Shown piece by piece: positions 13,422 to 23,692 of a stretch of DNA of 24,665 bases (position 1 is the stretch's first letter; the number at the start of each line of letters is the position of its first letter). The stretch is from a virus: UHGV virus genome UHGV-1848590; one strand, written 5' to 3'. The position numbers and the translations under genes were made by a program. The notes under the pieces were generated by a model, which had not been told where the DNA came from, did no database searches, and worked only from the letters and a program-made list of their open reading frames with translations.

Positions 13422-13438
13422 ATTGCTCTAATAAATAT
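13422..13438 (+). promoter_or_regulatory. C1 repressor operator-like site upstream of uhr-hrdC-dmt
   Basis: ATTGCTCTAATAAATAT, 16/17 match to the P1 C1 operator consensus ATTGCTCTAATAAATTT as I recall it. Confidence 0.55.
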
Positions 13439-14692: not shown

Positions 14693-17600
14693 AAGAGCTG
14701 TGCTATGGATCTGTTTGCAGTGGAATTGAAGCCGCGAGTATTGCCTGGGAACCGTTGGGTATGCGTCCGGCGTGGTTTGCTGAAATCGAGCCTTTTCCAT
14801 CGGCCGTTCTTGCGCTCCGCTGGCCCCATGTTGCCAACCTTGGCGACATGAAAAAACTTGCCAAAAAAGTCTTGGCTGGGGAAATCGAATCCCCTGACGT
14901 GCTCGTCGGGGGAACACCATGTTTTACCGCGGGGCATATGGTTCTTTGTAAAAATGGCTATAAACCAATAGAAAATGTTTGCCCTGGTGATTACGTAGTC
15001 AGTCATCTCGGGCGGTTACAACAAGTAAAAAGAGTTGGTTCAAAAATAGCTAATACGGGGTTACTTAATGCCGTTGGGCAGCCTTTAGGTATAAGAACAA
15101 CCAATGACCATCCCTTCCTGGCTGTTCGGTGGAAAGCCCAAAACACCCGGAAAAATGGCACATATTTTAAGAGAGAGTTGTTGTCTGAACCGGAATGGCG
15201 AGCAGCATGTGATATGCCGGGATATCAATGGTGCGCTCTAACTAATTTCAATATTGCATTTCCAGATATTTGTTCTCGGTTCTTGTCTGAAGAACAGGCT
15301 ATGTATCTTGCGGGCGCTTATGTTGGCGATGGATATATTAGGAGATGGAGAGGTAAATCTAAGAAGGCGGTTGTTTTTGGCATAAATTGCCAGAAATTGA
15401 GAAAGTTTCATTGCCGCATACCAGAAAACATATTTTCCGTGGCAAGCGAAATCCGAGGGAGCATCAAAGTAACCTTGAATGATACGTGTTATGCCAATTG
15501 GCTTAATGAACATTTTGGCGAGTTAAGCCATGCTAAGCGTATCCCTGCATGGGTGATGTCGCATCCATTGCGTCATGTGTTTTTACAAGGCTATCTTGAT
15601 ACTGATGGGACACCAAGTGGTAAAGCGGGATTTAGAATTAATAGTGTTAGTTCTGCGCTTGCTTGGGGCGTTGCGGGGTTGTCACAGACTTGTGGTTATG
15701 TTTCTTCGGTCAGCTTTATTGAAGTTGAGCCCAAAAAAGTGATCGAGGATCGCGTGGTAAATCAACGGAATTATTATCAGGTAACAATCTGCCCGCAGAA
15801 ATTGTCACGTAAATCAAGATTGGCTCATGGAATGCTTTTACGAACAGTCAAAGAGTTTAAATCGGTAGGCCTAGATACTGTATACAACATAGAAGTCGAA
15901 GGTGATCATTCCTATATCCTCAATGGTGCGGTGGTCCATAACTGTCAGGCATTCAGTATCGCGGGATTACGTGGTGGGCTTGATGATGAGCGTGGCGCGC
16001 TAACTTTAAAGTATGTGGAGCTTGCAAATGCAATTGACGACAAACGGGCTGAGTCATTTCTCAAACCAGCCGTTATCGTCTGGGAAAATGTCCCAGGAGT
16101 CTTGTCATCGGCAGATAACGCCTTCGGATGTTTCCTTGCCGGATTGGCTGGAGAAGATGTGCCATTTGAACCAGGTGATCGACCTGAATCAGGAAAAAGC
16201 AACGCGTTCTGGCGGTGGGATGGCAAAACCGGTTGCCATGTTCCAAAGTGGCCGCAGTGTGGTTGTATTTATGGACCGCAGCGAAAAGTGGCCTGGAGAA
16301 TCCTTGATGCCCAATACTTCGGAGTGGCACAACGACGCCGACGCGTGTTTGTTGTCGCAAGTGCTCGAACAGATCTCGATCCCGCAACGGTACTTTTTGA
16401 GTTCGAAGGCGTGCGCCGGAATATTGCGCCGAGCAGAGGCGAGGGGAAGGAAACTACCAGATATACTTCAAACATCGCTATCAGAACTTGCGATGATACA
16501 AACATAATTGCCATGGCACATGGGCAAGGAGGGGCTGAGATAAAAACCGATAATTCGGCACCAACTTTGACATGTAACCATGAAGCACCAATTGTATTGC
16601 TCGGCGACGGTAGAATGCGCCGTCTTACCCCTGTCGAATGTGAAAGGCTGCAAGGTTTTCCTGATTGGCATACGTTGATCCCTACGGAAAAGCGTAAAAA
16701 AGTTAATTCAGATGAACTGGCATATCTGCACAATCACTATCCAGATTTAAGCGAAGAAGAGGCCGCAATGCTTGCAGCTGACGGACCGCGTTACAAAGCG
16801 ATCGGCAATAGTATGGCAATACCAGTAATGCGCTGGATTGGCGATCGGATTACTAAGGCCGTATGTCGGCAGAAAGAAGGAAGTGAAACAAAAGAGCGAA
16901 AAGTTAAACCAGCGGCAGAATTCGAACGGTCCATATTCAAATGGGCTGGTGGAAAATTTGGTGTTCTGGAACAAATCTTTCGCTATTTGCCAGAAGGGAA
17001 GCGCCTGATTGAACCTTTCGTTGGTGGCGGAGCTGTCTTCATGAATGCCGGATACCAGGAAAATCTGCTAAATGATGTGAATGCTGACCTGATTAACTTT
17101 TACAAGACTCTGCAACGCGAGGCGCATTCACTTATCACTCTGGCACATCGTTTCTTCCAGGACTACAACACACAGGAAGGATACCTGGCAGTACGGAATG
17201 CGTTTAACAAACAAGTCTATGATGATTTACATCGCGCAGCGGCGTTTTTGTTCCTGAACCGACATTGTTTTAACGGATTGACGCGTTACAACCAGGCCGG
17301 TGAGTTCAATGTCGGTTATGGGAAGTATAAAACTCCGTATTTCCCATTACAGGAGATGGAAGCCTTCCTCGGTGCGGAAGGGCGGTCTGAGTTTGTATGC
17401 GGTGATTTTGCAGCGGTGATTGAAGCTGCCGGAGAAGGAGATGTCATCTTTTGCGATCCGCCGTATGAACCGCTTCCAAATACAGAGGGATTCACGAACT
17501 ATTCCGGTCATGACTTTAAGTTTGAAGAGCAAAAACGCCTGGTGTCTCTGTTGACGGATGCTCATCGTCGAGGTGCAAAGGTTCTCATTACTAACAGTGG

Positions 17601-17730
17601 CGCGCCAAACATCAGAGAGCTTTATCATGACAGTGGCTTCAGAGTGGAACCTCTTTTTGCCAGACGTTCTGTGTCTTGTAAGGGGGACACTCGAGGTGTA
17701 GCTCATGACGTTTTGGGTATATTGCTCTAA
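14689..17730 (+). CDS. dmt: bifunctional DNA methyltransferase Dmt (N-terminal C5-cytosine MTase, C-terminal Dam-like N6-adenine MTase) interrupted by an intein; 1013 aa precursor
   Basis: C5-MTase motifs I (CSGIEAAS), IV ([12 protein letters not shown], split), VI (VWENVPG), VIII (QRRRRVFVV), X (GNSMAIPV); Dam domain from ~residue 745 (FKWAGGKF...FCDPPYEP); GTG start overlaps the rdgC stop. Confidence 0.9.
14920..15942 (+). mobile_element. intein with LAGLIDADG homing endonuclease (341 aa, residues 78-418 of Dmt)
   Basis: Block [21 protein letters not shown], block [17 protein letters not shown] motifs [11 protein letters not shown] and [11 protein letters not shown], blocks [23 protein letters not shown] followed by +1 Cys; flanks rejoin as [12 protein letters not shown]. 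Confidence 0.85.
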
Positions 17731-17737
17731 TAAATTT
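17721..17737 (+). promoter_or_regulatory. C1 operator-like site overlapping a promoter
   Basis: Exact ATTGCTCTAATAAATTT overlapping the dmt stop; -35-like TTGCTC (17722-17727), 17 bp spacer, -10-like TAATAT (17745-17750). Confidence 0.6.
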
Positions 17738-17749
17738 ATTAGTGTAATA

Positions 17750-17937
17750 TCACCTCAATGAATCGTGATTTATAGAGCGATTTAGCTGTTAGCCGCGACA
17801 GGCGCGGCGGTAAGCATGGCTGGGCCTAGTCCTCCCAGACAAACCACCGAGTTGCCAGGTTGACCATGCGCCTAAGTGGCAACGCCGAAGTGCGTTACGA
17901 GCGTCCAGTTTGCCCATCTTCGGGTGGGCGTTTTTTT
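17750..17937 (+). ncRNA. candidate small RNA or terminated leader (~190 nt)
   Basis: Between the operator-overlapped promoter and a strong terminator; only trivial ORFs; several local hairpins (gccgcg/cgcggc, ctggg/cccag, ttgcca/tggcaa). Confidence 0.3.
17912..17937 (+). terminator. rho-independent terminator
   Basis: 7 bp stem gcccatc/ggtgggc with UUCG tetraloop, then G and a T7 run. Confidence 0.7.
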
Positions 17938-18402
17938 CAGGGTTTTCGTCATGGTTAGCGACTTTGCGGCGGTTTAGAAACTGACCATTAAAGTAAATGC
18001 AAACGATGATCTGATGATGGTAGCGGCCTAAGAAGCCAGATGCCATGGGGTATGAGTCGTCCCCCGTCAAAAAATCGACCGCAGAGTGTCCCCGTCTGTG
18101 TATTAGGGAACGGGGAGGCACAACAGGTAAGGGCGCTGGTGTGATTAACCAGATGAACGAGAAGGGGCCATCTGTTGGTCAGCGTCCTTTCCTGTTGCGT
18201 TTTCTTTTCAGCGTAACAGCGGTGCTTAACAGCACTTTGGGTACAGTTCCACGAATTTACGGGTATATCCCGTCATGCTGAAGGCGCTAATCACGCTGGA
18301 AGCCAGGGTTATGCATCCCCTGTTACCGAATTGCAGCCAGGGCGCGGTGCGCCGAAAAGCATACGGAGGTGGAAGCCCTCGCCGGAGACGTACCCGGCAA
18401 GT

Positions 18403-18477
18403 GATGGTGTAGCTCAGCGGTAGAGCAGTTGGCTGTTAACCAACTGGTCGGTAGTTCGAATCCACCCACCATCGCCA
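18403..18477 (+). tRNA. tRNA-Asn (anticodon GTT)
   Basis: Manual cloverleaf: acceptor gatggtg/caccatc, D-arm gctc...gagc, anticodon arm gttgg-ctGTTaa-ccaac, TTCGAAT T-loop, encoded CCA. Confidence 0.85.
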
Positions 18478-18482
18478 CTTTA

Positions 18483-18569
18483 GGGGAGTTAGTCCGTAGG
18501 GGTAGCGGGGTAGACTGTAAATCTACTGTCATTGCGACTCGGGTGGTTCGACTCCATCACTCCCCACCA
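18483..18569 (+). tRNA. tRNA-like element, Tyr(GTA)-like class II, noncanonical acceptor/D-arm junction (possible pseudo-tRNA)
   Basis: Acceptor ggggagt/actcccc + A + CCA, anticodon arm gtaga-ctGTAaa-tctac, long variable arm, TTCGACT T-loop; acceptor-to-D-stem linker is irregular. Confidence 0.4.
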
Positions 18570-18573
18570 CATT

Positions 18574-18649
18574 GCCGATTTAGCTCAGTTGGTAGAGCAG
18601 TCGCTTTGTAAGCGAATGGTCAGCGGTTCGATCCCGTTAATCGGCACCA
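18574..18649 (+). tRNA. tRNA-Thr (anticodon TGT)
   Basis: Acceptor gccgatt/aatcggc, D-arm gctc-agttggta-gagc, anticodon loop ttTGTaa, TTCGATC T-loop, encoded CCA. Confidence 0.85.
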
Positions 18650-18653
18650 ACAT

Positions 18654-18728
18654 AACAGGTAAGAGCATTCTCCCTTATGGGGCCTGGCTTAAATGCATCG
18701 AGTGCTCTTACCGTTGTGATGAAGTGCA
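18654..18728 (+). repeat. structured repeat element, copy A
   Basis: 5' arm AACAGGTAAGAGCATTCTCC pairs with GAGTGCTCTTACC; tail GTTGTGATGAAGTGCA shared with copies B and C. Confidence 0.4.
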
Positions 18729-19020
18729 GATCTTAGAAGCAACCAGAAGATAAGCATCTGGCTTCACAACATAAACCGCAGGAACGACCAATAAACGGTA
18801 GTCCGTATGGAGAACACCCCGTTGAGGAAGAGGCCTGGCCGGAACCGTAACCGGCGACTGGTAATGTGTGTAAATGGAGCGAAATATGTGGGCGTTTAAC
18901 GGGATACGGGTTGTAACAGCGATTATTAACGGCGAACTTAAGTATTCACGTTTCGAGACAAATGAACGTGATGGGAAATGTATTGGTGTGCGGTTAGTAA
19001 GAGAATACGCATAACAACTA

Positions 19021-19123
19021 CAACGTTGAGAACACTGGCGTAACGGGGTCATATCCCAATCTACGAATAAATGTTGCGTTGCCGCGTGACAACCAGTGTT
19101 CTCAACATTGTGGTGAATGCACA
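19021..19123 (+). repeat. structured repeat element, copy B
   Basis: Perfect 14 bp inverted repeat GTTGAGAACACTGG / CCAGTGTTCTCAAC around a loop with CGTAACGGGGTCATATCCCAATCTAC; tail ATTGTGGTGAATGCACA. Confidence 0.4.
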
Positions 19124-19298
19124 GGCTGATGTGCCGCAACTACAGTAGTGCGCGCTTTGCGGGGCTTGCTACAACCCTGTGTCGGAGTTCAGCACCGACC
19201 ATCACAGTTTGATTCTCTGGCATGAGCATAACGCTGAAATAAGTCCAGTCTGGTGCGGTCTGATCACCCGCCGTTAGCTCCACGAAACGGAGCACGTA

Positions 19299-19383
19299 AC
19301 AGGTAAGAGCATTCTCCTGTAACGGGTTCATATCCCAATCTACAGGTCCACCAAGAATGCTCTTTCCGTTGCGGTGAATGCGG
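19299..19383 (+). repeat. structured repeat element, copy C
   Basis: 5' arm as in copy A, loop motif TGTAACGGGTTCATATCCCAATCTAC as in copy B, 3' arm AGAATGCTCTTT, tail CCGTTGCGGTGAATGCGG. Confidence 0.4.
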
Positions 19384-19522
19384 CTAAGCGCACGCGGGGA
19401 AATGGTTATATCTGTCCATTATTTCTCCTTGTTTCCACGTCCACGGTGGATAACCAGCCAAAGGACACCGGGAGGAACCCGGCACCGCAGCTTTTTTATT
19501 CGTTAAATAATGGAGTGAGAGG

Positions 19523-23359: not shown

Positions 23360-23391
23360 ATTGCTCTAATAAATTTGATTTATTAGAGCAA
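23360..23391. promoter_or_regulatory. paired inverted C1 operator-like sites
   Basis: ATTGCTCTAATAAATTT (23360-23376) and, 3 bp away, an inverted copy of the TTGCTCTAATAAAT core (23378-23391). Confidence 0.55.
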
Positions 23392-23692
23392 ATAAACTAC
23401 CATCGAACGCCAGACTATTGATCTTCCTGTTGTTCAGGCTTATAGTTCCTACGTCGTAGTAAATTCTGCGACCGGGTTTGACAGCCTGAATGTACATGCG
23501 GACAACCGCAGATATCCGATATTGCGGTATTTTTGTGTCCGTAAACCACGTTACGCCCGAATTATGGTGGGGCGTGATGGGGAGGCTTCGGCCTGCTGGT
23601 TTCATGTACGCCAGTCTGCTAACCCCGTCACGTCCTGCCACCTGTTTGACAGCGGGTAGCAGGTTGTTAAACCTGTACATGAGGCCGTAACT

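Follow-up and report, generated by a model that had tools for sequence, protein, structure and literature searches.

The viral genome UHGV-1848590 was analysed as a stretch of 24,665 nucleotides (nt), in the following called the window. We investigated a non-coding segment of this window (17721-17937), which lies between the dmt gene and a cluster of transfer RNA (tRNA) genes followed by ban. The original prediction, made from the sequence, had described the segment as bracketed by a promoter under control of the C1 repressor and a strong terminator, and had proposed that it is either a small RNA (sRNA) or an attenuator. Positions 17600-18450 are 100% identical to the P1-like phage vB_EcoM-Ro157c2YLVW and 98.7% identical over 851 nt to phage P1 (NC_005856 68546-69396), with which they are colinear. 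P1 coordinates were carried to the window by pairwise alignment (window positions are those of our locus L001 plus 14599).

The ban promoter region and its terminator

The P1 record lists at this site the end of dmt, the predicted promoter P2ban, the sigma-70 promoter P1ban, the bivalent C1 operator Obanab (formerly Op72ab) and a misc_feature named 'dicF-like region' (NC_005856 68791-68892, approximately 17845-17947 in the window); together, promoters, operator and this region span 68651-68892 in P1. They are followed by tRNA-Asn, tRNA-Thr, plp/upl (on the opposite strand), tciABC, tRNA-Ile and ban, and the predicted location ahead of the tRNA cluster and ban agrees with this annotation. The operator and the promoter hexamers are identical to those of the P1 ban region, and the order of dmt, operator/promoter, non-coding segment and tRNA-Asn is the same. 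Within the segment, the window and P1 differ only at 17752, at 17903 and in the terminator tail, which has seven T residues in the window and six in P1. The promoter and operator are the known Op72/Pban, and the non-coding segment is the known, uncharacterised 'dicF-like region' of P1. Because the P1 record annotates both, the locus is already known at the annotation level, and we rate the finding as already known with a modest refinement. Neither the P1 annotation nor the widespread RNA domain described below had been recognised in the original prediction.

Obana (17721-17737, plus strand) is an exact match to the 17-bp asymmetric consensus ATTGCTCTAATAAATTT, as had been predicted, and the stop codon of dmt (17728-17730) falls within the operator. 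The overlapping inverted partner on the minus strand (17732-17748), a site named Obanb in the P1 record, has two mismatches. With up to three mismatches allowed, five C1 operator sites were found in the window, compared to 0.13 expected from shuffles. Further C1 operators are located at 13422 (13422-13438) and at 23360 and 23376 (within 23360-23392). The immI RNAs are likewise present in the window, as the c4-a1b1 targets and the C4 antisense RNA (23440-23492, 23560-23645), and both score above the Rfam gathering scores.

The two hexamers of P1ban are separated by a 17-nt spacer and match the consensus at four of six positions each (8/12 together). A consensus promoter scan of positions 17000-19500 reported no promoter at its threshold, and the P1ban hexamers score below it. 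Since the hexamers are too weak for the scan, the promoter status of P1ban rests on the P1 record. The promoter pair that had been predicted at the dmt stop is thus annotated in P1 but is weaker than had been implied. Judging from the position of the -10 element, transcription would start at approximately 17757. P2ban, for which the P1 record uses the label 'predicted', has its -35 element at 17705-17710 and its -10 element at 17731-17736. No further promoter on the same strand is annotated in the P1 record or was detected by the scan before ban.

The terminator scan identified a stem at 17911-17930 followed by TTTTTTT. The hairpin, which contains five G-C pairs among its 7 bp, has a folding energy of -11.3 kcal/mol when folded alone, confirming the predicted 7-bp stem, UUCG loop and T-run. 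A hairpin abutting the U-run is present in approximately 100% of the thermodynamic ensemble, where the terminator strands pair either within the hairpin (0.59) or in a register-shifted local hairpin (0.40). The ensemble analysis revealed neither an upstream competitor for the terminator strands nor a mutually exclusive antiterminator pairing. A classical attenuator with alternating terminator and antiterminator was therefore rejected.

As had been predicted, the open reading frames (ORFs) in the segment are short or overlapping, and none is a credible coding frame. A minus-strand ORF of 110 amino acids (17789-18121), listed as 'hypothetical protein' in SJ46 and JL22, is probably spurious; it runs across the conserved domain, the terminator and the tag module described below. 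The 5′-terminal hairpin of the predicted transcript, which appears in the minimum free energy (MFE) fold as well as in the centroid fold, occurs in P1-type phages only and not in lambdoids, and it has no comparative support.

A conserved RNA domain common to lambdoid DicF loci

A homology search with the segment, the check that had been proposed for it, returned the P1 locus and a conserved core domain that is common to the DicF loci of lambdoid phages. The counterpart in the Qin prophage of E. coli K-12 (L002:2501-2597) is located between ydfC and dicB and ends approximately 25 nt 5′ of mature DicF. We found the core in 61 phage records, including mEp460, cdtI, Stx2c phages, Salmonella F1055 and Actinobacillus pPE4, and in more than 120 IMG/VR loci, amounting to 74 distinct variants. 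It is also present in prophages of Escherichia, Shigella, Citrobacter, Serratia, Trabulsiella, Erwinia and Izhakiella. Its orientation is always that of the operon leading from the repressor via kil/dicB to exo. With our own covariance model, R1, the window scores 98.7 bits. No Rfam family matches the segment, either at gathering thresholds or at E <= 10, and no description of the core domain was found in Rfam or in the searchable literature, including work on structures upstream of DicF.

In the P1 record, the label 'dicF-like region' takes in the terminator but no more than the 3′ half of the conserved domain, whereas the true homology to dicF loci corresponds to the core as delimited in Table 1. 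Homology of P1 to lambdoids is limited to this interval, and the core is kept by every P1-type sequence examined. P1 retains the core alone from the lambdoid cassette, which speaks for a function of the core itself.

For the covariation analysis, 84 copies of the core (81 distinct) were aligned to the covariance model and six helices were tested, one of which is a pseudoknot. In the 81 distinct sequences 95.8% of the cells are paired, in an alignment that had been fitted to the model, compared to 29-57% after shifting the 3′ partners by 1-3 columns. Changes on both sides were found in 13 pairs, and none of 500 column shuffles reached the observed values. Judged by this sequence comparison, compensatory changes support four helices, together with a predicted loop pseudoknot that has one covarying pair.

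The first hairpin (hp1) is conserved in sequence; its helix is unproven, because no compensatory change occurs there. Helix Px surrounds the pseudoknot strand and the second hairpin (hp2) and has one compensatory pair (46:125), which changes from U-A to C-G in P7-type sequences. The covarying pair of the pseudoknot is found as U-A, C-G or U-G, and support is limited since the search patterns fixed most pseudoknot positions. In hp2, three of the five pairs show two-sided changes; its loop is hypervariable as well, with a mean pyrimidine fraction of 0.81 (30 distinct loops), and often contains UCCUU or UCCUC. Compensatory changes are present in five of the seven pairs of the third hairpin (hp3), for example GUAACCA/UGGUUAC in Izhakiella. 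Most lambdoid copies have an outer 8-bp helix, which P1-type copies lack. The several local hairpins that had been predicted are thus only partly borne out: the fold of the single sequence is unremarkable (z = -1.6), whereas the comparative analysis shows a conserved pseudoknotted domain. A small ORF in the domain (ATG 17816) was rejected as a candidate, since the peptide lengths in P1 and Qin are unrelated and the indels in hp2 are not multiples of three.

These data bear on the possibility that the segment is a functionless relic of a lambdoid dicBF cassette, which recombined in between dmt and ban, with the hairpin merely terminating dmt. The region is mosaic, lambdoid homology is confined to the core, D6-type relatives differ here, and the terminator is located approximately 200 nt past the dmt stop, all of which would be compatible with a relic. 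However, substitutions among P1-, P7- and lambdoid-type copies preserve pairing, the hp3 loop is strictly conserved, all P1-type sequences examined retain the domain and transcription from an experimentally named C1-controlled promoter would enter the segment. We therefore regard a relic as very improbable.

Table 1. Positions of the features discussed in the text; coordinates refer to the window unless a locus is named.
Feature	Position	Strand	Basis and remarks
Predicted sigma-70 promoter P2ban	17705-17736	+	Mapped from NC_005856 68651-68682, 'predicted' only
C1 operator Obanab (formerly Op72ab), bivalent	17721-17748	both orientations	Operator search and P1 annotation
Sigma-70 promoter P1ban	17722-17750	+	P1 annotation; -35 TTGCTC 17722-17727, -10 TAATAT 17745-17750
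5′-terminal transcript hairpin, predicted	17759-17784	+	In MFE and centroid folds
Conserved core domain common to lambdoid DicF loci	17793-17887	+	~95 nt; ~78% identity to Qin
hp1	17792-17808	+	GCCGCG-ACAGG-CGCGGC; sequence conserved, 96% of cells paired
Helix Px	17808-17849	+	CGGU 17808-17811 with ACCG 17846-17849; 99.7% paired
Pseudoknot	17814-17869	+	GCAUGG 17814-17819 with CCAUGC 17864-17869 in hp3 loop; 99.8% paired
hp2	17820-17838	+	CUGGG-CCUAGUCCU-CCCAG; stem 17820-17824/17834-17838 hypervariable; pyrimidine-rich loop
hp3	17851-17883	+	GUUGCCA ... UGGCAAC; stem 17851-17857/17877-17883; 19-nt loop GGUUGACCAUGCGCCUAAG nearly invariant
Variable linker, core to terminator	17888-17911	+	In Qin, occupied by the single-stranded 5′ part of DicF
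Intrinsic terminator	17912-17937	+	7-bp stem 17912-17918/17923-17929, UUCG loop, G, T7 17931-17937
tmRNA-like tag module, unannotated	17938-18117	+	Directly 3′ of terminator
STnc100 sub-threshold matches	L002 2671-2880, L007 1754-1938, L133 4405-4614, L130 6927-7145		Rfam

The sequences 3′ of the domain are variable. The linker of P1 cannot be aligned to DicF, and GUUUGCCCAU is the sole sequence of the P1 3′ part that is shared with the loop of a DicF variant (L133). As far as sequence goes, the similarity of P1 is to the upstream domain of the DicF locus and not to mature DicF. A hairpin followed by a T-run is located 46-138 nt past hp3 in 95 of 101 distinct family members (46 nt in the P1-type). 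In Qin and mEp460 this hairpin is DicF itself; elsewhere the hairpins are divergent (for example GGCGGUACCAG.. and GGCGGGUAUCC..), and the P1-type has GCCCAUC-UUCG-GGUGGGC. Since a conserved 5′ domain is joined to a variable terminator-type sRNA hairpin, the unit is modular.

Two further observations concern the 3′ parts of other family members. In F1055, Serratia, Trabulsiella, Erwinia and Izhakiella (L008, L134, L144, L146 and L147) a terminator hairpin 60-140 nt past the domain encloses a Shine-Dalgarno sequence and a start codon, and a tiny ORF (e.g. MFYRGTALFTQ*) crosses the U-tract; it could be a leader peptide or part of a translation-coupled terminator. Directly 3′ of DicF-type terminators, several lambdoids have sub-threshold matches to the Rfam family STnc100 (31-39 bits, gathering threshold 47).

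DicF is made by early Rho-independent termination, and read-through expresses dicB; RNase E generates its 5′ end, and RNase III is needed for a 72-nt form (PMC9438474, PMC5069750). The entire lambdoid cassette lies within a long-range stem, formed for example by GUGCUCUCUUCGUUGUGG and, 3′ of the terminator, CACAACAGAAAAGAGCAU; in Qin this stem is predicted by the MFE fold. A 'BoxA-like' sequence 5′ of lambdoid copies was reread as the 5′ strand of this stem. The stem may be an RNase III site, which would fit the published 72-nt end, and the RNase E-dependent 5′ end of DicF fits cleavage within the linker. P1-type copies are without the long-range stem because their unit starts at the promoter.

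One might conclude from this that the domain is a processing or stability module only, a compact, cloverleaf-like four-way junction that guides RNase E, III or P or shields a 5′ end. It would then set the 5′ end of the downstream sRNA in lambdoids and stabilise the 5′ end of the ban mRNA in P1, with no role in trans. RNase E cuts the 5′ end of DicF just 3′ of the domain and RNase III makes the 72-nt form (PMC9438474, PMC5069750). Moreover, the outer 8-bp helix of lambdoids closes the domain into a tRNA-like four-arm topology, and the long-range stem adds an enclosure of domain and sRNA. On the other hand, P1-type copies keep the core without outer helix or long-range stem, and a nearly invariant loop in hp3 and a pyrimidine-rich one in hp2 speak for specific recognition and not for bulk structure. 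A pure processing module is therefore a distinctly unlikely explanation.

The leader between the terminator and the tRNA genes

Directly 3′ of the terminator we found an unannotated module that resembles the tag region of transfer-messenger RNA (tmRNA). Its tag frame (17999-18031) reads GCA AAC GAU GAU CUG AUG AUG GUA GCG GCC UAA and encodes ANDDLMMVAA*. The frame has no start codon: an in-frame TAG is located seven codons upstream (17975-17977), with no ATG, GTG or TTG in between. The likeness to tmRNA consists in the start with the Ala codon GCA, UAAAU before the frame, the AA-UAA end, the hairpin and pseudoknot after it and conservation at the peptide level. In the hairpin (18045-18067), GUCG (18056-18059) pairs with CGAC (18076-18079) as a pseudoknot, and a second hairpin follows 3′. 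Related phages have the tags ANDDVVLMAA, ANDDLMLMAA, ANDDLMLAAA and ANDNEFKVAA; codons vary synonymously (GTT/GTA/GTC for Val, GCC/GCT/GCG for Ala), and hairpin and pseudoknot covary (CCGA/UCGG, CCAG/CUGG and CCAA/UUGG; GUCG/CGAC in P1).

A total of 292 phage records contain the tag module, among them those of virulent N4-like, Ackermannviridae and T1-like phages, and it carries no annotation there; in KFS-SE2 it has its own promoter (TTGACA-17-TAGATT). ARAGORN reported no tmRNA at the module. The Rfam permuted-tmRNA models match only this stretch, with 24.1 bits (tmRNA_permuted) and 11.6 bits, far below the gathering thresholds of 47 and 84. Pattern searches and ARAGORN revealed no consistent tRNA-like domain, T-arm or acceptor stem near the module, and no description of a phage tmRNA-like tag module was found in the literature. 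We also considered whether the conserved domain could supply the acceptor part of a tmRNA made of two pieces; this was rejected because the domain has no T-arm or acceptor features and because domain and tag module occur independently in lambdoids.

The next part of the leader (18118-18200) forms a long hairpin (GCACAACAGGUAAGGGCGCUGG ... UCAGCGUCCUUUCCUGUUGCG), for which D6 has compensatory changes (CAUAACAGGCAAGG / CCUUACCUGUUACG). The same stem motif, CACAACAGGUAAGAGC / GCUCUUNNCGUUGUG, flanks RNA cassettes in the late leaders of lambdoids, some with a T-arm-like GGGUUCGAAUCCC, and such stems are possibly a family of RNase III processing stems. Positions 18201-18402 are a non-coding leader of approximately 200 nt before tRNA-Asn with several hairpins, which is conserved in P1, P7 and D6 and has no Rfam match. 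Between tRNA-Asn and tRNA-Thr the window encodes an additional 87-nt tRNA-Tyr (GUA, with a long variable arm; 18483-18569), which is absent from P1 and P7. At the same spot, other P1-type contigs encode Asn or Arg, with or without Tyr, and then Thr.

In D6-type phages (phage D6, L149 760-1500 and 1497-1526) dmt, operator and domain are replaced by approximately 700 nt of unrelated non-coding sequence, and the terminator hairpin is retained together with all that lies 3′ of it. The replacement ends in a CCCCGCUGCAAC motif, similar to the 3′ edge of the lambdoid domain.

It is conceivable, though doubtful, that the domain represents an undescribed class of structured phage RNA with a function of its own, and that the Pban leader is a string of RNA modules of which the tmRNA-derived tag unit is the next. 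The domain could then be an element that binds polymerase or another factor and sets passage through the terminator, or a trans-acting RNA that works via its hp3 or hp2 loop. The tag unit, being common to temperate and virulent enterobacterial phages, would manipulate trans-translation.

A C1-controlled early-termination unit as the proposed function

The segment resembles DicF loci in its architecture. As in Qin (ydfABC-dicF-dicB) and other lambdoids, P1 has the homologous upstream domain, a short linker, a hairpin with a U-run and downstream genes that depend on read-through. In contrast, the part equivalent to mature DicF is not homologous, and outer helix and long-range stem are absent in P1. 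In addition, the P1 unit is promoter-proximal, whereas the DicF unit is located in a 3′ untranslated region or inside an operon. Judging by homology and architecture, the P1 unit most likely works as a DicF locus does. On balance, we are inclined to see the segment as the transcription unit nearest the promoter of the P1-type ban operon.

We propose that P1ban is blocked in the lysogen by C1 occupying the bivalent operator. Without C1, after infection or induction, RNA polymerase would start near 17757 and transcribe the 5′ hairpin, the pseudoknotted domain of approximately 95 nt and the short linker. A substantial fraction of the polymerases would stop at the terminator, and an RNA of approximately 180 nt (~17757-17937) would be released. 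The other polymerases would continue past the terminator and transcribe the tmRNA-like tag module, the tRNA cluster, tciABC and ban. The logic would be that of lambdoid dicBF, where early termination yields DicF and read-through yields dicB, and the P1 unit would combine a homologue of the dicBF upstream domain with a divergent terminator hairpin of its own. As with the early-termination sRNAs DicF and SroC (PMC9438474), one promoter would give rise to a terminated small RNA and a read-through mRNA. However, the predicted P1 RNA would be a primary 5′ transcript of approximately 180 nt that consists mostly of the structured domain, whereas RNAs of the DicF/SroC type consist of a short Hfq-type seed and a terminator. 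For the domain we favour a role as a scaffold for folding and biogenesis that would also bear a pyrimidine-rich recognition loop. Of the two options in the original prediction, the sRNA is the better one, in view of the DicF-locus architecture, and the classical attenuator falls with the lack of a competing structure. We consider the explanation as a whole, a C1-repressed, terminated RNA combined with read-through to the tRNAs and ban, slightly better than an even bet.

Several observations weigh against this proposal. The Rfam DicF model RF00039 has no match at E <= 10 in 17650-18420 (gathering threshold 48 bits) and none in P7, while the controls Qin and DicF variant L133 score 76.7 and 43.5 bits. 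The P1 3′ part shows no complementarity to the ribosome-binding region of ftsZ beyond that of shuffles (RNAduplex -27.1 kcal/mol, shuffle mean -32.7), in a crude test in which DicF itself only reaches the top 17%. The single-sequence fold does not stand out; the thermodynamic probability of hp3 is 0.04, and imposing the helices carries a penalty of 7.6 kcal/mol, not counting a pseudoknot bonus. The covariation comprises few independent events, because many changes split few clades (P1-type versus lambdoid); hp1 has none and the pseudoknot a single pair. In D6-type phages the terminator hairpin goes with the downstream module and not with the domain. Finally, a literature search returned no transcript data for the region, on which the P1vir RNA sequencing paper (PMC8201110) is silent. 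The search also found no account of P1 ban transcripts or of an antiterminator RNA here, and svsR (PMC12803456) is a different locus.

The position of the domain might also suggest a leader that regulates terminator read-through in cis, be it as a polymerase-binding RNA like put or another processive-antitermination RNA, or as a riboswitch-like aptamer with a terminator platform. It would serve to extend Pban transcription to the tRNAs and ban (dicB/kil in lambdoids) and not to make an sRNA. In P1 the domain begins approximately 35 nt past the inferred start and precedes the first terminator of a unit of several kb, with no other promoter annotated ahead of ban. Several lambdoids place it approximately 350 nt past the repressor gene in pL direction, 5′ of kil/dicB, and a pseudoknotted domain with nearly invariant loops and a variable terminator is typical of aptamer-plus-platform units. 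The known precedent is put of HK022, a promoter-proximal structured RNA located 5′ of terminators in an early operon without a dedicated antiterminator protein, and the P1 segment would solve the same problem. However, HK022 shows no similarity to the domain (none with blastn, nhmmer E > 0.7, none with R1 at E <= 1), the four helices with a pseudoknot are unlike the two-stem put RNA (PMC9378689), and the P1 segment has no experimental link to RNA polymerase. The ensemble analysis, as described above, shows no antiterminator pairing that is exclusive with the terminator strands. Furthermore, Stx2c-type phages have the domain far from pL, beside the DicF/dicB module, and the long-range stem of lambdoids encloses domain and sRNA, which would imply excision as one unit. 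We consider such a leader unlikely and continue to prefer a DicF-like early-termination unit.

Since promoter, operator and the 'dicF-like' label have long been listed in the P1 record, the finding as stated changes little. The refinement is that P1 shares with DicF loci not the DicF regulator, but an uncharacterised, covariation-supported domain that fronts a terminator-type hairpin. If this domain governs sRNA biogenesis or read-through, it would explain how lambdoids dose their cell-division inhibitors of the dicB/kil type and how P1 doses its tRNAs and the Ban helicase. P1 would offer a clean, C1-switchable system for testing the role of the domain.

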